Shown here in pieces: positions 4,137 through 35,745 of a DNA stretch of 64,000 bases. This DNA is from Hoeflea sp. (GTDB taxonomy: Bacteria > Pseudomonadota > Alphaproteobacteria > Rhizobiales > Rhizobiaceae): contig NZ_JAUXOD010000135.1 of the NCBI RefSeq assembly GCF_030682515.1, positions 5,335-69,334 of the forward strand, in the 5' to 3' direction. The stretch's first letter is position 1; each line of letters begins with the position of its first letter. A program made the translations under genes and the position numbers. The notes below the pieces were generated by a model. It was not told the origin of the DNA and did not search any database. It saw only the letters and a list, made by a program, of their open reading frames with translations.

Positions 4137-5489
4137 TCATTGAACTTTGATCGCGGTCGTCGTCGCACTGACCGGGGGAATTTTCCACGGACACTCCGGA
4201 AACGGGCTGCTCCCCGTCATGCGCGCCAGCGCCTGGGCCACGGGCAGCTCGTAGACCGGCAGAATGCGCGAACTCCGGCCGATTAACCTTCGGCACAGAA
4301 AGCCACCCTCGACGCCGTTTCCCGAGACCCAGTCGCGCACTGTGCCGTCCAAATACCGGCCAAACAATGGCGAAACGCCGTTTTGTCCGCCGCCGCCGAT
4401 CTCCAGCGGCGTAATCCGGTCGAGATTGCGGATGCGGTACCGGCCGTCCCAGACACAGCAGGCTCCCGGCGCGAGGCTTGCCTTTTCGATCCCCCGCCGC
4501 TCCCGCCGGATCTCCAGATCCTTGTTCTTCAGCCGCACCAGCGAGCGGCCTAGGGTGAGCGACCGGTCGCCGCGGTCGCCGGGAGAGGCTGCCCAGAGCC
4601 GCAGGGCCTCGGCCAGCGTCGCTTTGCCGCGCCGGTCCGGCGGCCTTCCGGCGCCGCCGCACAGGTCGATCAGCGCCGCGATCACGGCTGCCAGCAGCAC
4701 CGGATCCTCCTCCGGACGCCATCGCAGAAAGACCATGTCATCGGCATTCCAGGAACAATTCTCGTCGATATGGATCGCCACACTCCGGGAGAGACTCAGG
4801 CGGCCGGCGGCGGTGGACACGCCATCGGGCGCGGCGGCGTCTGCAGGGCTCTGCGTGAGCAGGCCGCGAACGCGCACCCGCTCGAACCGAGCGTCGCTGT
4901 TGGACGGATCCTCGATCCAGTCCACCCGCGCCTGCCTCAGGAAACCGCGGATCTCGGCGCGGGTGAGCCCCAGCAGCGGCCGCAGGACCCACATCCTCTC
5001 CTCGAACAGCGTCGCGCGCGGAATGCCGGCGAGGCCTGCCCCGCCGGAAGGGCTGCGGGCGCGGCGCATCGCCAGCGTCTCCTGCTGGTCGTCGCGGGTG
5101 TGGCCCGTCAGCACCGCGGCGAGACCCAGCCGCGCGGCAGCTGAGGCCAGCAGCCGGTAGCGCGCCGACCGCGCCGCGGCCTGCAGGCCGGTCGGCGGAG
5201 GCCCACCCTCCCAATGGAGCGTTTGATGGCACACGCCGAGCCTTCGGCAATGGGCCTTGACCTGCCGCGCCTCTTCGGCGGAGCCGGGCCTCAGGCCGTG
5301 ATCGACGGTGAGCGCAAAGAGCCTGCCGGGCGCCACCAGGCGGGCAAGCCCGTAAAGCAGGCCGAGCGAATCCGATCCGCCGGACACAGCGACGCCGAGC
5401 GGACGATGGTCCGTCACCTGGCTCAGAAATTCAGAAAGGCATTTTTCAAGACCGGACGGCATCTGGGTGAGCGGGTCCGGCGCGGGCAT
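4137..5489 (-). CDS. tilS: tRNA(Ile)-lysidine synthetase
   Basis: PP-loop VAVSGGSDS, TVDHGLR, RSARYRLL, GHTRDDQQET, RPLL, WIEDPSN, R.RVR; directly upstream of ftsH. Start may be a few codons later. Confidence 0.93.
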   Translation of the reverse strand: MPAPDPLTQMPSGLEKCLSEFLSQVTDHRPLGVAVSGGSDSLGLLYGLARLVAPGRLFALTVDHGLRPGSAEEARQVKAHCRRLGVCHQTLHWEGGPPPTGLQAAARSARYRLLASAAARLGLAAVLTGHTRDDQQETLAMRRARSPSGGAGLAGIPRATLFEERMWVLRPLLGLTRAEIRGFLRQARVDWIEDPSNSDARFERVRVRGLLTQSPADAAAPDGVSTAAGRLSLSRSVAIHIDENCSWNADDMVFLRWRPEEDPVLLAAVIAALIDLCGGAGRPPDRRGKATLAEALRLWAASPGDRGDRSLTLGRSLVRLKNKDLEIRRERRGIEKASLAPGACCVWDGRYRIRNLDRITPLEIGGGGQNGVSPLFGRYLDGTVRDWVSGNGVEGGFLCRRLIGRSSRILPVYELPVAQALARMTGSSPFPECPWKIPPVSATTTAIKVQ

Positions 5490-5506
5490 CAGCGGCGCCC
5501 TCGGGC

Positions 5507-6409
5507 TCAGCAGCTCGCCAGGACCTGCTCTTCGGCGACCTTGGCGCGAACCGCGGCCGATGCACCGGGGTATCGGATCAGCACTTCGCGCAGCGTGGCG
5601 CAGGCGGTGTCGCGATTGTCGAGCTTGGCCAGCGACATGCCGAGCTTGAGCAGCGTGTCGGGGCCCTTGTCGGCGCTCGGATATTTTTTGTGGGCGTCGA
5701 GGAAGGTCTGGGCCGACGCCTGGTAATTGGCTTGGGAATACTGCGCTTCGCCGAGCCAGAACATCGCATCGGGCGCCCGCTCTCCGTCGGGGAAGCTGCC
5801 GACATATTGCTGGAACACCTGCTCGGCGAGCGCATAATCGCCCGCAAGCATGTGATTGTAGCCGGCCTGGTAGATGTCGTCGGGCGCGGTCAGCGAAGCC
5901 GTCGCGGCGCCAGGTTCGGTCGGCTGGATGATGCCGCCGATCAGGTCCCCGTTGTCATTGAACCGGATCGTTCCAAGGTCCACCGGCGGCGTGCCGGTGC
6001 CCTGGCTCCCTTGGTCGGCCGAGGCGGTGCTCGACGGTTCAACGCCCGGCTGGATGACGGCAGGACCGGCATCGCCGCGCTGGCCGCCGGTCTTTTCGAG
6101 TTCCTGGAAGCGGAACTCGTTGTCTTCCTGCATCTGGCGCATCTGTTCCTGCATCTGCAGCAACTGGAAGCCCAGTTCCTCGAGCCGGCCGTTCAACGCG
6201 CGGAGCTGTTCCTCGAGCTGTCCGATCCGGAACACCGGATCAGAGGATTGCGCCAGGACAACCGCCCCCCGATCGGACGACATCGACCCGACCGCGGCGG
6301 GCGGGACCGGCGCGTTCTGCGAAAAACCCGAGAACAAGGGCGCCGCATGTGCCGGGAATGAGAATGCGGCAAGCGCCGCCACTGCAATCAATCTGTAGAC
6401 TGGTTTCAT
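5507..6409 (-). CDS. cpoB: Tol-Pal system protein CpoB/YbgF
   Basis: Signal peptide from MKPVYRL (ATG 6409, GAGG upstream), coiled coil, C-terminal TPRs (YNHMLAGDY, AMFWLGE, LLKLGMSL); follows pal. Confidence 0.9.
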   Translation of the reverse strand: MKPVYRLIAVAALAAFSFPAHAAPLFSGFSQNAPVPPAAVGSMSSDRGAVVLAQSSDPVFRIGQLEEQLRALNGRLEELGFQLLQMQEQMRQMQEDNEFRFQELEKTGGQRGDAGPAVIQPGVEPSSTASADQGSQGTGTPPVDLGTIRFNDNGDLIGGIIQPTEPGAATASLTAPDDIYQAGYNHMLAGDYALAEQVFQQYVGSFPDGERAPDAMFWLGEAQYSQANYQASAQTFLDAHKKYPSADKGPDTLLKLGMSLAKLDNRDTACATLREVLIRYPGASAAVRAKVAEEQVLASC

Positions 6410-6533
6410 AGTTGACCTCACTACGCGGGCAATGACCCGGATCTCCGGGATCCGGACATCTGGCATAACGCATGGCGCGATATCAAATCAACGCACAAAC
6501 GGGCCAAACTATGGTGATCGCGAGAGTTCAACG

Positions 6534-6560
6534 AAAAGAGGGCGGCTTGCGGCCGCCCTC
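6534..6560 (-). terminator. Intrinsic terminator after pal
   Basis: Stem gagggcggc/gccgccctc followed by TTTT on the minus strand. Confidence 0.6.
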
Positions 6561-14666: not shown

Positions 14667-15176
14667 TCAGAGTTTGCCGTCGTCCCAGATGATGTGTTCC
14701 GTCGTGCCGGGCAGACTCTCGATGCGATCGGCCAGAAACACCGGCGGCAGCGGCAGCGCCTCGAGGCAGGCGCGGGTGGCCGGAACCCATTTGAACTCCA
14801 GATGGTTCTTGCCGTCGGCATTCTCGTGCACGATGCGGCCGTCTGGGGCGTAGGGAAAGCTCTGCGGAATGTCCATGAGGTAATACCAGCCGACCTCGTG
14901 CCAGTCCCGGTCTTCGAAGTGGAAGAAATTCTCGACCAGGAACACCAGCCGTCCGACCGTCACCGTGACGCCGAGTTCCTCCTCCATTTCGCGCACAAGG
15001 GTCGTGCGGCTGTCCTCGCCCAGTTCCGCGGTCCCGCCGGGAATGGTCCAGAACGGCTCATGCACCGCCCGGTGGACCAGAAGATGGCCGTCGCGCAGCG
15101 CAAGTCCGGCCACCCGCGCATTGAAGCGGCGTCCCTGGTCGTTGAAGCGGATGGTCTTGCGACTCTTGTGGCTCAT
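14667..15176 (-). CDS. NUDIX hydrolase
   Basis: Nudix box [25 protein letters not shown]; its ATG overlaps the ruvB stop (ATGA). Confidence 0.88.
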
Positions 15177-16210
15177 TCTTCTTCAAACAGGCTCGCCTGG
15201 GTGGCGGCGAGATCCCTGGGCGGATTGAGCCCCATATGCCCCCAGGCCCGCGCCGTCAGCACCCGGCCGCGCGGCGTGCGCTGCAGGAATCCCTGCTGGA
15301 TCAGATAGGGCTCGATGATGTCCTCGATGGCGTCGCGCGGCTCCGACAGCCCGGCGGCGATGGTTTCGATCCCCACCGGCCCGCCGCCGAAATTGCGCAC
15401 GATCATGTCGAGATAGCGCCGGTCGAGCTGGTCGAGCCCGATGCTGTCGACCAGCAGCCGGGTCAGCGCCTCGTCGGCGATGGTCTTCGTGACCGCCTCG
15501 ACCTTGGCCACTTCGGCGAAATCGCGCACGCGCCGCAGGAGTCGCCCGGCGATGCGCGGCGTGCCGCGCGCACGGCGGGCGATCTCGAGCGCGCCGTCAT
15601 CGGTCATGCCGAGCCCCATGATCCGCGCGCCGCGGCGCACGATCAGCTCGAGTTCGGGCACGGTGTAGAACTGCAGCCGCACAGGAATGCCGAACCGGTC
15701 CCGCAAGGGCGTGGTCAGCAGCCCGAGCCGCGTGGTGGCGGCCACCAGCGTGAACCGCGACAGGTCGATCTTGACCGAGCGCGCCGCCGGCCCCTCGCCG
15801 ATGATCAGGTCGAGCTGGAAGTCCTCCATCGCCGGATAGAGAATTTCCTCGACGGCCGGGCTCAGCCTATGGATCTCGTCGATGAACAGCACGTCGCGGT
15901 CCTCGAGATTGGTGAGCAGTGCGGCGAGATCGCCGGCCTTGGCGATCACCGGGCCGGAGGTGGATCGGAAATTGACGCCCAGCTCCTTGGCCATGATCTG
16001 CGCCAGCGTGGTCTTGCCGAGACCCGGAGGGCCCACGAACAGCACGTGGTCGAGCGCTTCGCCCCGGCCCTTGGCGGCTTCAATAAACACCTTCAGATTG
16101 GCCCGCGCCTCGGCCTGGCCGGTGAACTCGTCGAGCGTTTGCGGGCGAAGGGTGGTGTCAAAATCCTCGCCGCGCTTGTCGGGGGTGATCAGGCGTTCGG
16201 CGTCGCTCAT
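15173..16210 (-). CDS. ruvB: Holliday junction branch migration helicase RuvB
   Basis: [60 protein letters not shown]. Start set at MSDAERL (ATG 16210). Confidence 0.97.
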
Positions 16211-16602
16211 GAGAGGAACTCCATGCCGGGCACCTGTTTCGACGCCAGTTTGTCGAACGTGACCGTGTGGCTGCATCCGGCTTTCGCGGACGTCCATGCA
16301 ACGAAATAGTCCGCGATGTCGGCCGCGGGTTCGCCCGCCCTCAGCAAGGCGTCGAGTTCTTCCGTCATCTCGATCACGAGCCCGTCGCTGGCCAGCAGAT
16401 CACGCAGAATGCGGGTCACATCCGTCATCGGATACTTCAGCCGGCGGTTCAAGACCCAGACCGTCTCGGCAACAACGATGGCGCTGACATAAGCGGGATC
16501 ATCGGCGTTCCGGCTGCCAAGCCAGCGCCTGGCTGTCAGTCTCTGGTCGCTCTCGTCCTCCACAAGAAACCGAACGAGGATATTGGTATCGATGCCGATC
16601 AC
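16207..16602 (-). CDS. vapC: PIN-domain (VapC-like) toxin of TA module 2
   Basis: [28 protein letters not shown]: PIN acidic residues appear intact. GTG 16602 overlaps the antitoxin TGA; the toxin TGA overlaps the ruvB ATG. Confidence 0.88.
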
Positions 16603-16883
16603 TCTGTTGCTTCCTGCCATTCGGACACGGTCCGACGTTCATCTTCGGCCACAGCGTCCATGACGGCCTCCCGCATCTGTTCGATCGTCAGGGTTTCACC
16701 ACTCGGCGGCTTGCCAAGCGCCCCTGCAAGGTCGGCGAGTTTCTTGTTCTTCGGCACAGCCACGACATGACCATCGTAGGTGGTCACGTAAAACTGTGTC
16801 CCTGCCGTCAGGTTCAATTCATCCCGAACGTTCTTGGGGATGGTCAACTGACCCTTCGAGGTCATGGTGGTGAGGGCGCCCAT
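16599..16883 (-). CDS. AbrB/MazE/SpoVT-family antitoxin of TA module 2
   Basis: MTSKGQLTIPKNVRDELNL swapped-hairpin motif; AGAGG RBS. Confidence 0.88.
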   Translation of the reverse strand: MGALTTMTSKGQLTIPKNVRDELNLTAGTQFYVTTYDGHVVAVPKNKKLADLAGALGKPPSGETLTIEQMREAVMDAVAEDERRTVSEWQEATE

Positions 16884-16884
16884 T

Positions 16885-16946
16885 ATTCTTACCTCTCGAA
16901 AAAATTCTTACACCTTCAGTTTAGTAAGAATATCGTCGTAGAACAA
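16885..16946 (-). promoter_or_regulatory. Internal sigma70-type promoter and repeated operator of TA module 2
   Basis: Minus strand TTGTTC (16946-16941)-17 nt-TAAACT (16923-16918). ATTCTTAC occurs at 16885-16892 and 16904-16911, with its inverse GTAAGAAT at 16924-16931. Confidence 0.65.
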
Positions 16947-16947
16947 C

Positions 16948-17565
16948 TCACCGCGCCAGCTCCTTCAACCCCAGCCGGATCAACCTGGCCGAATCGGGAT
17001 TCTCGCCGGCATTCTTCAGCGCGGCGGCGACCGCGGTGGCGGCCTGATCGCGGGAATAGCCGAGATTGGAAAGCGCCGAAACCGCGTCCGCCACCGGCGC
17101 GGGCGCGACGCCTTCGCCGAGTTCCTGCCTGAGGCCCATGGCGCCGCCGGCCTCGCCCGAATAGGCCGGCGCCTTGGTCTTGAGCTCGGTGACGATGCGC
17201 TGCGCCACCTTGGGCCCGATGCCCGGGGCGCGGGCGATCATCGCCTTGTCCTGAAGCGCGATGGCATTGGCGAGATCGGAGGTCGTCAGCGTCGAGAGGA
17301 CCGCGAGCGCCACCTTGGCGCCCACCCCCTGGACGCTCTGCAAGAGCCGGAACCACTCCCGCTCCAGGACCGTCTCGAAGCCGAACAGCCGCAGTTGGTC
17401 CTCGCGCACATAGGTCTCGATGTGGAGCACCGCCGCCTCGCCCACCGATCCGAGCCGCGACAGCGTGCGGGTCGAGCAATAGGCCACGTAGCAGACGCCG
17501 TGCACGTCGATCAGCACGTGGTCGTCCGCAATTTCTTCTATGCTGCCTTTGAGTTTGCCGATCAT
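16948..17565 (-). CDS. ruvA: Holliday junction branch migration protein RuvA
   Basis: [62 protein letters not shown]. Start at ATG 17565. Confidence 0.97.
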
Positions 17566-17975
17566 GGGTGCGTATCCGGAGCTATGATGTCGAGCGTCGG
17601 GAAATAGCTGCGGTAGCCGGCGGGATCGCGCGTCAACAGCCGGTGACCCCGAACCACCGCATGGGCGCCGATCAGGAAATCGGGCAAAGTGCGCTCGCGG
17701 CTGCCGCCATTGTTGCGGTAGATCCGGAAGGCCCTCCCCGCCGCGAAAGCCGAACCCCATGGAAGGTGCTCACGCTGGAACTCGGAAGGATCGAGCAGCG
17801 CATCAACCTCTTCCACCGACTCGTAGCGGTAGGAAAATTCACTGAAGATCACCGGATTGATGACCAGAGCGCCCTTCTTGAGCGCCTCCGCCATCCGGCC
17901 GCGCGACCAGTCCCGCCACTCCGGATCGCGAAAGGCGACATCGATCAGGACATTTGTATCGACCAGGGTCGCCAT
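17562..17975 (-). CDS. vapC: PIN-domain (VapC-like) toxin of TA module 1
   Basis: [36 protein letters not shown]. Its TGA overlaps the ruvA ATG. Confidence 0.9.
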
Positions 17976-17978
17976 GTC

Positions 17979-18230
17979 CTAGCGATCCCGCGTTTCGCGC
18001 ATCACGTCGTCCGCGCTGAGCGTCGGATCGCCGGTGCCCTCGAGCCGGTCGAGCGCGGCAAGAAACCGCGCCAGGCGCTGCTTGTCGGCCTTCCGTTCGC
18101 TGCCATCCTTGGCTTCGAGGAAAATCCGGCCGCCTTCCACAGAGAAGACAACCTCGCTGTTGGCCTTAATTCCTGCCAGATCGCGAAGGTTCTTCGGGAT
18201 CGTCACCTGACCTTTTTCCGAAACGCGCAC
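17979..18230 (-). CDS. AbrB/MazE/SpoVT-family antitoxin of TA module 1
   Basis: RVSEKGQVTIPKNLRD motif; GTG start with GGAG upstream; ends 3 nt before the toxin ATG. Confidence 0.88.
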   Translation of the reverse strand: MRVSEKGQVTIPKNLRDLAGIKANSEVVFSVEGGRIFLEAKDGSERKADKQRLARFLAALDRLEGTGDPTLSADDVMRETRDR

Positions 18231-18243
18231 CTTATCACTCCAA

Positions 18244-18286
18244 GTCTGAATAATTCCAACTTATTCCGACCTGCAGAACACGTCAA
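18244..18286 (-). promoter_or_regulatory. Internal sigma70-type promoter and palindromic operator of TA module 1
   Basis: Minus strand TTGACG (18286-18281)-17 nt-TAAGTT (18263-18258). Inverted repeat GTC-T-GAATAA-N7-TTATTC-C-GAC at 18244-18270 overlaps the -10. Confidence 0.7.
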
Positions 18287-18290
18287 GAAC
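18276..18290. promoter_or_regulatory. LexA (SOS) box, alphaproteobacterial type
   Basis: GAAC acgtcaa GAAC, i.e. GTTC-TTGACGT-GTTC on the coding strand: a perfect match to the established GTTC-N7-GTTC consensus, enclosing the -35. Confidence 0.75.
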
Positions 18291-18297
18291 AAATCTG

Positions 18298-18804
18298 TCA
18301 CTCAGCCGCCATGCGCCAGGCCGGCGATGTGCGGTGATGGGCGTGGCAGATGGCGATTGCCAGCGCGTCGGCGGCGTGATCGCTGTCGAACGTGGCCTTG
18401 GGCATCAGCACCCTGACCATCATGTGGATCTGCTTCTTGTCGCCGTGGCCCACGCCGATGACCGCCTTCTTGACCGCGTTCGGCGCATATTCAGCGACAC
18501 GCAGGCCCGCCCGCGCCGGCACCACCATGGCGATGCCGCGCGCCTGGCCGAGCTTCAGGGTGGCGGTGGCGTCCTTGTTGACGAAGGTGTTCTCGACCGC
18601 CGCCTCGAACGGCTGGTAGAAGTGCAGCACGCTTTCCAGGCCATCATAGAGCTGCTTGAGCCTTGAGGCGAGATCGAGCTTGCCGTCAGACTTGACCGTG
18701 CCCGACGCGATGAAGCGCAGCGAATTGCCGAGCGTTTCGACAACGCCCCAGCCGCTGTTCCTGAGCCCGGGATCAATACCGATAATCCGAATCGCTTCCG
18801 CCAT
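18298..18804 (-). CDS. ruvC: Crossover junction endodeoxyribonuclease RuvC
   Basis: [65 protein letters not shown] 18804 (TTG 18810 is an alternative). Confidence 0.97.
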
Positions 18805-18849: not shown

Positions 18850-18864
18850 GAACAAACCAAAAAC
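18850..18864. promoter_or_regulatory. Probable LexA box upstream of ruvC (1 mismatch)
   Basis: GAAC aaaccaa AAAC, i.e. GTTT-TTGGTTT-GTTC on the ruvC strand, 46 bp upstream of the ATG. Confidence 0.5.
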
Positions 18865-34851: not shown

Positions 34852-35745
34852 ATGATGAATGCAACCATGGCGCAGCAGATGACGGACAAGGACGGCTTCA
34901 TCGCCGCGCTCGACCAGTCGGGCGGGTCCACGCCCAAGGCGCTCAAACTCTACGGCGTGGAGGAAGGCGCCTATTCGAATGACCAGGAGATGTATGCGGC
35001 GATCCACGCCATGCGCGCCCGCATCATCAAGTCCCCCGCTTTCACCGGCGAGAAGGTGATCGGCGCGATCCTGTTCGAGCGCACCATGGACAGCGACATC
35101 GACGGCATCCCGACCGCCGATTATCTCTGGGACAAGCGCGGCATCGTGCCGTTCCTGAAGGTCGACCAGGGCCTGGCCGGGGAAGAGAACGGCGTGCAGC
35201 TGATGAAGCCGATCGGCGGGCTCGACGCGCTTCTGGACCGCGCGGTGGCCAAGAATATCTTCGGCACCAAGATGCGGTCCGTCATCAACGCCGCCGACAA
35301 GGACGGGATCGAGGCGATCGTCGCCCAGCAGTTCGAGGTCGGCAAGCAGATACTCGGCCACGGCCTGATGCCGATCATCGAACCGGAAGTGAACATCAAG
35401 ATTTCCGACAAGGCCGAGGCCGAAGACCTGCTGCTGGCAGCACTCGGCCGTCACCTCGACACCTTGTCATCGGGGCAGAGGATCATGCTCAAGCTGTCGC
35501 TGCCGACCAAGACCAATCTCTACAGGAAGCTGGTGGACGATCCGCGCGTCATGCGCGTGGTGGCCCTGTCGGGCGGCTATTCCCGCGACGAAGCCAACCG
35601 CCTGCTGTCCGCCAATGACGGCGTGATCGCCTCCTTCTCGCGCGCGCTCACCGAAGGCCTGTCCCACGGCCAGAGCGATGCGGAGTTCGATGCGACCCTC
35701 GCCGCCACCATCGACAGCATCTACCAGGCGTCCCGCGCCGCCTGA
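34852..35745 (+). CDS. fda: Class I fructose-bisphosphate aldolase (short bacterial Fda type)
   Basis: FIAALDQSGGSTPKAL, GAILFE, PFLKVDQGL, GTKMRS, PIIEPEV, VVALSGGYSR, ASFSRAL. Confidence 0.9.
   Translation: MMNATMAQQMTDKDGFIAALDQSGGSTPKALKLYGVEEGAYSNDQEMYAAIHAMRARIIKSPAFTGEKVIGAILFERTMDSDIDGIPTADYLWDKRGIVPFLKVDQGLAGEENGVQLMKPIGGLDALLDRAVAKNIFGTKMRSVINAADKDGIEAIVAQQFEVGKQILGHGLMPIIEPEVNIKISDKAEAEDLLLAALGRHLDTLSSGQRIMLKLSLPTKTNLYRKLVDDPRVMRVVALSGGYSRDEANRLLSANDGVIASFSRALTEGLSHGQSDAEFDATLAATIDSIYQASRAA

Follow-up and report, generated by a model that had tools for sequence, protein, structure and literature searches.

How do two complete toxin-antitoxin (TA) modules come to stand inside the operon for Holliday junction processing, and what keeps them there? 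Chromosomal TA modules are abundant, and the reasons for their persistence are disputed. The question is raised by a stretch of 64,000 nucleotides (nt), hereafter the window, from a Hoeflea-like Rhizobiaceae genome recovered from a groundwater metagenome (contig NZ_JAUXOD010000135.1, positions 5,335 to 69,334); the sequence was matched only by metagenome DNA runs, from groundwater and other sources. In the window, ruvC, vapB1-vapC1, ruvA, vapB2-vapC2, ruvB, and a NUDIX hydrolase gene follow one another in this order on the minus strand, and all four TA genes are intact. The ruvC-ruvA gap is denoted here as slot 1 and the ruvA-ruvB gap as slot 2, and the cassettes therein as TA1 and TA2. Overall, it seems rather probable that the cassettes are addictive VapBC modules of type II, each with an AbrB-type antitoxin and a PIN RNase toxin, which became entrenched in an SOS-regulated ruv operon and pass from lineage to lineage through recombination in the flanking, conserved ruv genes.

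A first-pass annotation of the window, made from the sequence, had recognised a complete pair of an antitoxin and a PIN-domain toxin in each of the two gaps, all genes being co-oriented, and the Pfam domains and the common minus strand bear this out. The Holliday junction resolvase gene ruvC (18298..18804; Pfam RuvC, 7e-45) is followed by vapB1 (17979..18230), which starts with GTG and encodes an AbrB/SpoVT-type (AbrB/MazE) antitoxin of 83 amino acids (PF04014, 8e-10; TIGR01439, 2e-11), and by vapC1 (17562..17975), which encodes a toxin of 137 amino acids (PF01850, 4e-12). Between ruvA (16948..17565; RuvA_N, HHH_5, and RuvA_C) and ruvB (15173..16210; RuvB_N, 3e-79, AAA_lid_4, and RuvB_C), vapB2 (16599..16883) encodes an AbrB/SpoVT-type antitoxin of 94 amino acids (PF04014, 2e-8; TIGR01439, 4e-11) and vapC2 (16207..16602) a second PIN-domain toxin (PF01850, 3e-11). 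The latter has 131 amino acids when read from the GTG at 16602, with an alternative ATG at 16620; its homologues are mostly called at 131-132 amino acids. Each Pfam match lies above the curated cut-off, and NCBIfam concurs for the antitoxins. The stop of vapC1 overlaps the start of ruvA, and the stop of vapC2 the start of ruvB, by the four nucleotides ATGA; vapB2 and vapC2 overlap by GTGA, and vapB1 and vapC1 are spaced by 3 nt. The G+C content is about 0.65-0.72 in the ruv genes and falls to 0.53-0.61 over the cassettes and the stretches upstream of them.

The two cassettes are dissimilar and both toxins keep their acidic PIN motifs, as had also been noted. The antitoxins are alike in the N-terminal AbrB part only (32% identity over 40 amino acids), and the toxins belong to different families, one PIN family occupying each slot with a cross-slot identity of about 25-31%. 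The residues D6, E46, D99, and D117 of PIN1 are invariant in 33 of 33 slot-1 toxins, and the four equivalent acidic residues of PIN2 are kept in 37-38 of the 39 slot-2 toxins, while overall toxin identity drops to 35-50%. Both in sequence and in structure the cassettes thus have what VapBC modules have: a PIN domain with four acidic residues, and a small AbrB antitoxin gene upstream that overlaps or abuts the toxin gene. An AlphaFold2 model of vapC1 (predicted local distance difference test, pLDDT, 90.8) has Rickettsia VapC2, VapC15 and VapC11 of Mycobacterium tuberculosis, and Shigella VapC as its nearest folds, with template modelling (TM) scores of 0.74-0.79. The model of vapC2 (pLDDT 94.9) matched VapC-type PIN domains with high probability and lower TM scores. 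Its top Foldseek match in the PDB, above the M. tuberculosis VapCs, was PcrIIC1, a PIN-like partner of type II-C Cas9 (8wmm_G, E-value 1.5e-4), at a low TM score of about 0.49, and this may mean little. A sequence search of solved structures gave no meaningful match for either toxin.

Compared with a close relative (locus L094 of the survey described below), the window genes have ratios of nonsynonymous to synonymous divergence (dN/dS) of 0.17 for vapB1, 0.14 for vapC1, 0.06 for vapB2, and 0.19 for vapC2, next to 0.13 for ruvA. The ranges are 0.14-0.21 for vapB1 and 0.14-0.24 for vapC1, and all TA genes lie within 0.06-0.24. By these ratios, all four TA genes are under purifying selection.

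To place the window among its relatives, the ruv neighbourhood was surveyed with one genome per species and the window RuvA as query, and the best 80 of more than 541 matches were retained; these loci, denoted by L numbers, come from Hoeflea, Rhizobium, Neorhizobium, Agrobacterium, Allorhizobium, Ensifer, Phyllobacterium, Mesorhizobium, and other genera. The window RuvA is nearest to that of Hoeflea (86-89%), and the window vapC1 product is 92-99% identical to Hoeflea proteins. In the 80 loci both gaps are bimodal in length: one group does not exceed about 170 nt, the other measures about 705-765 nt, and a few gaps lie in between. An open reading frame (ORF) of PIN size is present in both slots of 16 loci, in slot 2 only of 19, in slot 1 only of 13, and in neither slot of 32. 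Once curation had struck out L011 (a copy in decay) and L085 (an ORF of another kind), two intact cassettes remain in 14 loci and at least one in about 47. Therefore, the suggestion that the arrangement might be a sporadic insertion in a single strain is refuted. PIN2 homologues of 51-71% identity occupy the same ruvA-ruvB slot in other Rhizobiaceae, and the layout ruvC-TA-ruvA-TA-ruvB also occurs in Neorhizobium sp. NCHU2750, in unclassified Rhizobium, and in metagenomic contigs. Across the loci, the toxin gene ends in overlap with, or close to, the start codon of the ruv gene, with an invariant overlap in slot 2. Members of the PIN2 family that are farther off (in Rubrivivax, on other contigs, and in S. 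meliloti) sit outside ruv contexts, and plasmid-borne relatives exist for both TA families. The PG[MF]xL tail of PIN2 is a feature of the family and is present outside ruv contexts as well.

The slots occasionally hold other sequences. Unrelated ORFs were met in the ruvC-ruvA gap of L084 (3081-4004, 307 amino acids) and in the ruvA-ruvB gap of L085 (4618-5127, 169 amino acids). The ruvC-ruvA gaps of L055 (246 nt) and L079 (168 nt) contain long imperfect palindromic elements and no TA remnants; the element in the gap of Sinorhizobium saheli reads GGCCTGCCGGCCATCTCCCCCACAAGGGGGGAGA…TCTCCCCCCTTGTGGGGGAGATGGCCGGCAGGCC. These elements look like small repeat insertions or insertions of the miniature inverted-repeat transposable element (MITE) type.

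The cassettes do not share the ancestry of their ruv flanks. Across locus pairs, PIN and Ruv identity are uncorrelated (Spearman rho 0.06 for slot 1 and 0.02 for slot 2; permutation p 0.12 and 0.31, respectively). L060 and L067 are 98.7% identical in their Ruv proteins and 95% in vapC2, and only 47% in vapC1; L045 and L047 are 97.3% identical in Ruv, 44% in vapC1, and 35% in vapC2. Slot-1 identities among close species are either about 85-95% or about 42-49%, and this bimodality points to two idiomorph-like allele classes in slot 1, which are interleaved over the Ruv tree. Slot 2 holds many allele classes. The Ruv tree was built from three proteins by the neighbour-joining method.

The same discordance is found around the window itself. 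The Hoeflea representatives L008, L009, L012, L013, and L033, with Ruv identities of 91-93%, lack TA1, and their TA2 is either absent or only 31-36% identical. TA1 is common to the window and to the Hoeflea-like metagenome contigs L088, L090, and L094, at 92-94% identity. In nucleotide alignments of the window with L088 and L090, homology runs unbroken through ruvC, TA1, and ruvA up to the ruvA stop, is lost over slot 2, and returns within the final seven or so vapC2 codons; in comparison with L009 and L013, homology is missing precisely between the ruvC stop and a point 3 nt short of the ruvA ATG. The synonymous divergence (dS) of the TA1 genes is 0.10-0.30 versus 0.41-0.77 for the flanking ruvC and ruvA, i.e. 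2-4 times lower, which implies that the TA1 cassette has a more recent shared ancestry than the genes on either side of it.

Slot-2 content varies among close relatives of the window, since L088 has two tandem VapBC cassettes in this slot (5094-6542), three TAs in total, while L090 (5099-5365) and L094 (3323-3589) carry an orphan antitoxin of 88 amino acids in front of different slot-2 cassettes. In L093, slot 1 holds two cassettes, the second with its own GTTCTTGACTTGTTC box (a candidate LexA site, discussed below), and between them lies a 71-nt copy of the 5' end of ruvA (4431-4501), identical to the resident ruvA at 69 of 71 positions. This copy is a trace left by recombination that was anchored in ruvA. 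The 37 nt from the copy to the second cassette were considered as the 3' end of a foreign ruvC, and this was dropped, as the region is too variable for identification. The ruvA fragment is the only duplication met in more than 80 related loci. Hallmarks of mobile elements, namely transposase, integrase, attC, terminal repeats, and target-site duplication, were found neither in these loci nor at the window locus. The first-pass annotation had seen no transposase, integrase, or target duplication, and this agrees with the neighbouring genes scanned at the window or called in relatives, none of which is a transposase or integrase, and with the lack of a flanking direct repeat at the window locus. 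Its notion of repeated selfish insertion is not supported as worded: in place of independent insertions of unrelated TAs there is one PIN family per slot, whose divergent alleles are swapped, stacked, and deleted.

Loss has left traces as well. Decayed cassette copies are present in L008, L011, L046, L049, and L069, and deletion scars with a promoter and/or a PIN tail in L016, L025, L042, L057, L074, L076, L081, and L087. In about eight loci whose slot 2 seems empty, the promoter and/or the last vapC2 codons (…PGMELLT and the stop) persist, joined to the ruvB start. The wider proposal that all empty slot-2 gaps are scars was rejected: the PIN tail is unmistakable in about 8 of 45, degenerate in others, and absent from gaps of 27 nt or less. 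The idea that insertion created the ATGA overlap was rejected too: ruvB opens with ATGA at every locus, even where the gap is short and bears no trace of a cassette, and the PG[MF]xL tail of PIN2 is, as noted above, a trait of the family. The toxin 3' end appears to survive deletions, and this would fit a role of that end as the translation-initiation region of ruvB.

GTTC-N7-GTTC is the LexA motif of alpha-proteobacteria (PMC3323433; PMC9578287), LexA sites have been predicted at the alpha-proteobacterial ruvCAB promoter (PMC3323433), and ruvCAB is SOS-induced in Caulobacter (PMC9578287). Upstream of ruvC in the window, a LexA-like box with one mismatch to this motif, GTTTTTGGTTTGTTC, lies at 18850..18864 on the minus strand, and a one-mismatch box (GTTTTTGTTTTGTTC; motif GTTTTTGTTTTGTTCAC) precedes ruvC at the same distance in 73 of 84 loci. 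In slot 1, 8 nt past the ruvC stop, the direct repeat GTTC-N7-GTTC is present in perfect form as GTTCTTGACGTGTTC (18276..18290, minus strand), where it overlaps the -35 element TTGACG (18286..18281). Only two perfect boxes exist in the 64-kb window, and the second (35380-35394) was rejected as an SOS site, being inside an aldolase-like ORF by pgk and at chance expectation. The 15-mer GTTCTTGACTTGTTC occurs 2-23 nt past the ruvC stop in every locus with an occupied slot 1, decayed cassettes included, is identical at 15 of 15 positions in nearly all of them, and does not occur at any locus where the ruvC-ruvA gap is short. Four loci have the box without a cassette, and at least two of these (L016 and L014) keep a remnant of the vapC1 tail and are therefore deletion derivatives.

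Downstream of the slot-1 box, a putative vapB1 operator, the inverted repeat GAATAA-N6-TTATTC (18248..18265, minus strand), overlaps the predicted -10 element TAAGTT (18263..18258). Palindromes over the predicted -10 differ by allele class, with GTAATACC..GGTATTAC in class 1A, GTAAGA..TCTTAC in class 1B, and GAATAA..TTATTC in the window. The plasmid relatives of the slot-1 TA possess the GGTATTAC operator and lack the LexA box; therefore, the operator belongs to the TA and the box to the ruv locus, and the promoter is chimeric. In slot 2, the vapB2 promoter/operator region (16884..16946, minus strand) comprises a -35 element TTGTTC (16946..16941), a -10 element TAAACT (16923..16918), and an inverted repeat TATTCTTAC/GTAAGAATA (16932..16924 with 16911..16904). 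A third GTAAGAAT copy stands by the vapB2 start codon (16892..16885), resulting in a triple ATTCTTAC/GTAAGAAT repeat overall. Most loci share this layout, with a -35-like TTG element and a homologous TCCTTAC..GTAAGGA palindrome, and the slot-2 promoter region contains no LexA box. A generic scan with E. coli-type promoters and terminators returned no promoter and no intergenic terminator, and such a scan is uninformative for alpha-proteobacterial promoters.

RNA contigs of relatives speak for a promoter inside the operon at slot 2 and for transcripts that carry toxin and ruv genes together; no run was found for Neorhizobium galegae. In three RNA runs of Agrobacterium vitis, adapter-joined contigs have their first base at the A of the ruvC start codon ATG, 7 nt past a TAGGAT -10 element (L027, 3406-3466), which suggests that the ruvC mRNA of A. 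vitis is leaderless. Others have their 5' end at the G in the right arm of the operator that precedes vapB2, and further contigs span the vapC2-ruvB junction. By analogy, 16911 is the predicted transcription start of vapB2 in the window. In Rhizobium rhizogenes, a high-depth contig leads from the tail of a different vapC1 allele into ruvA, and another one spans the vapC2-ruvB junction. When these runs (X21-X23) are compared with L067 (3944-4025 and 5278-5801), only toxin tails and ruv genes align, because the run strain has other TA1 and TA2 alleles; this suggests that TA alleles differ even within one species label. Transposon insertions in vapB and vapC of Rhizobium leguminosarum give a ruvAB phenotype (PMC11406972), and the shared phenotype is consistent with polarity.

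The NUDIX hydrolase gene (14667..15176, minus strand; PF00293, 6e-14) is probably the last of the transcription unit, because its start overlaps the ruvB stop by a third ATGA. It holds the same place in L003, L012, L013, and L088, and elsewhere it is about 1 kb away or absent. Its product gave a domain-level PADLOC match to the candidate system PDC-S07 (1.4e-9).

The history and control of the locus may be outlined as follows. Each slot would have been colonised by its own VapBC family, of which that of slot 2 appears to be ancestral across much of the Rhizobiaceae. The modules would have persisted as addictive elements, and translation of ruvA and ruvB may have come to initiate within the 3' ends of the toxin genes; with these ends in such a role, most cassette deletions would be polar on the repair genes. 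Divergent alleles would then have been replaced via recombination in the ruv flanks, giving rise to swaps, tandem stacks, orphan antitoxins, and deletion scars. With regard to expression, the LexA-type box upstream of ruvC would control the operon. The vapB1-vapC1-ruvA genes would be both SOS-inducible and autorepressed, with the LexA box over the -35 and the VapB1 operator over the -10, and an autorepressed promoter of its own in slot 2 would feed vapB2, vapC2, ruvB, and the NUDIX gene. The first-pass annotation had placed ruvA and ruvB each behind a TA-controlled promoter. Promoter/operator regions of the TA type are indeed present directly upstream, and while structural support for dual LexA/VapB1 control of ruvA and for VapB2 control of ruvB is good, the control as such is predicted.

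Several points weigh against this account of entrenched, recombining modules. We infer rather than observe the toxicity, neutralisation, LexA binding, and VapB binding on which it draws, as well as the translational coupling of toxin to ruv genes and any effect on RuvAB supply. The RNA data come from relatives of the window organism and consist of contigs assembled from small runs, whose depth is unreliable; DNA carry-over is possible, and one run gave a 6-kb contig over the whole locus. The 80 best RuvA matches are a non-random sample, and the neighbour-joining Ruv tree is built on three proteins. The LexA box may or may not predate TA1 at slot 1. Part of the allele discordance could also arise if diversifying selection drove very fast divergence, although this would leave the low TA1 dS and the bimodal identities unexplained. 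Finally, purifying selection, long retention, and an invariant LexA box would be equally expected of a regulator that benefits the host, so that the cassettes need not be purely selfish. However, host benefit is not likely to be the main reason for the cassettes, because their distribution is patchy and they decay and swap alleles.

The last point leads to the domesticated checkpoint that the first-pass annotation had envisaged. In its fuller form, LexA cleavage would induce vapBC1-ruvA, antitoxin turnover would free VapC to pause translation and growth during RuvAB work, and coupling would set RuvA and RuvB output. A perfect LexA box that is kept in every slot-1 cassette and missing from the plasmid relatives speaks for such a circuit, as do the toxin stops that overlap or closely abut the ruv starts, invariantly so in slot 2, and the purifying selection on all four TA genes; the SOS-induced higBA, a growth regulator in Caulobacter, provides a precedent (PMC9578287). 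Yet 32 of the 80 relatives contain no ORF of PIN size at either position and others a single one, many copies have decayed or been lost by deletion, and the nearest Hoeflea relatives lack TA1 altogether. Non-orthologous alleles in sister species fit a tuned host circuit poorly, and inducing TA transcription does not by itself free the toxin. The ruvAB phenotypes shared by the R. leguminosarum vapB and vapC insertions could be cited in favour of the checkpoint, but polarity accounts for them more simply. We found no direct support for the checkpoint, which is hard to square with so patchy a distribution, and we regard it as unlikely; the LexA box nevertheless gives it a testable form.

Defence against phages is another function that rapid turnover could reflect. 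If the cassettes were abortive infection modules whose position at ruv is incidental, allele turnover would record an arms race, and turnover at a fixed locus with tandem stacking does resemble defence hot spots; both families have plasmid relatives, and some type II TAs do defend against phages. On the other hand, none of the four TA proteins was matched by PADLOC at an E-value of 0.01 or less, the neighbouring genes scanned or called in relatives look metabolic or housekeeping, with no defence or mobile-element genes among them, and neither the conserved LexA box nor the fixed ruvB junction would be explained. Therefore, this reading seems distinctly improbable. Least credible of all is that the cassettes are decaying passengers, inert in the window genome. 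The decayed versions in L008, L011, L046, L049, and L069 indicate that such relics arise, but in the window the four ORFs, the catalytic residues, and the operator repeats are all in place, and dN/dS is 0.06-0.19 versus a relative whose TA proteins are 89-95% identical. The account of entrenched modules exchanged through the ruv flanks can also be extended, in a way that we offer as a doubtful speculation: ruvCAB might be a dedicated exchange site, at which incompatible VapBC "idiomorphs" with distinct operators compete for two slots and spread via ruv recombination. Having captured an SOS promoter and the translation starts of ruvA and ruvB, they would gate RuvAB supply after damage, and their loss would cost repair. 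If this were true, the ruv genes that mediate the spread of the cassettes would also be the genes that resolve the recombination intermediates involved.

With known VapBC systems that have AbrB antitoxins (Rickettsia felis VapBC2, Shigella and Salmonella VapBC, Caulobacter VapBC1, and Sinorhizobium NtrPR), the window modules share the order of antitoxin and toxin, the overlapping or abutting ORFs, the N-terminal AbrB/SpoVT DNA-binding domain of the antitoxin, and palindromic putative operators over the promoter. They differ in that the toxins are less than 25% identical to any solved VapC, and in that the modules are not free-standing and are nested in a repair operon, with the toxin stop overlapping the next start. 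As in dinB-yafN-yafO-yafP of E. coli and higBA of Caulobacter crescentus, a type II TA stands under a LexA promoter with or by damage-response genes (PMC9578287). YafNO and HigBA, however, are RelE-like, single, and not polymorphic, whereas the window locus has PIN toxins in two modules, each upstream of a repair gene and polymorphic between species, and its slot-1 promoter adds a cassette-specific antitoxin operator to the LexA box. The first-pass annotation allowed that the arrangement might already be described, and this is so for the slot-1 pair only, in passing: according to an insertion sequencing (INSeq) study of R. leguminosarum 3841, RL3987-RL3988 (vapBC) lie upstream of RL3989-RL3990 (ruvAB), which is the same slot-1 arrangement (PMC11406972). 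That paper mentions one cassette, with no LexA box, second slot, allele classes, or turnover. A full-text literature search yielded no account of the paired cassettes, their LexA box, the families particular to each slot, or allele turnover, and beyond the slot-1 pair the arrangement appears to be undescribed.

Hot spots of chromosomal TAs are known, such as ccdO157 between folA and apaH in E. coli and the TA cassettes of Vibrio superintegrons. The ruv slots resemble them in their fixed position, lineage-variable presence, decay, and orphan antitoxins compatible with anti-addiction. In contrast to these hot spots, the ruv slots have no integrase or attC, lie inside an operon, and would exchange their contents via homologous flanks, as the ruvA fragment in L093 illustrates. 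The locus is a well-defined natural system, not a new mechanism.

As such, it offers a natural experiment on the persistence of chromosomal TA modules: two fixed slots in a conserved repair operon, among close species with zero, one, two, or three cassettes and with differing alleles, where orphan antitoxins and deletion scars record past turnover. It also offers a mechanism of entrenchment, in which the 3' ends of the toxin genes would serve as translation start regions of ruvA and ruvB and spread would proceed via conserved flanks. The chimeric promoter of LexA box and VapB operator makes a link between the SOS response and a VapC RNase testable. For rhizobial genetics, vapBC insertions at the ruv locus are likely to be polar on ruvAB, and the predicted SOS control of ruvA and ruvB may vary from strain to strain with cassette content.

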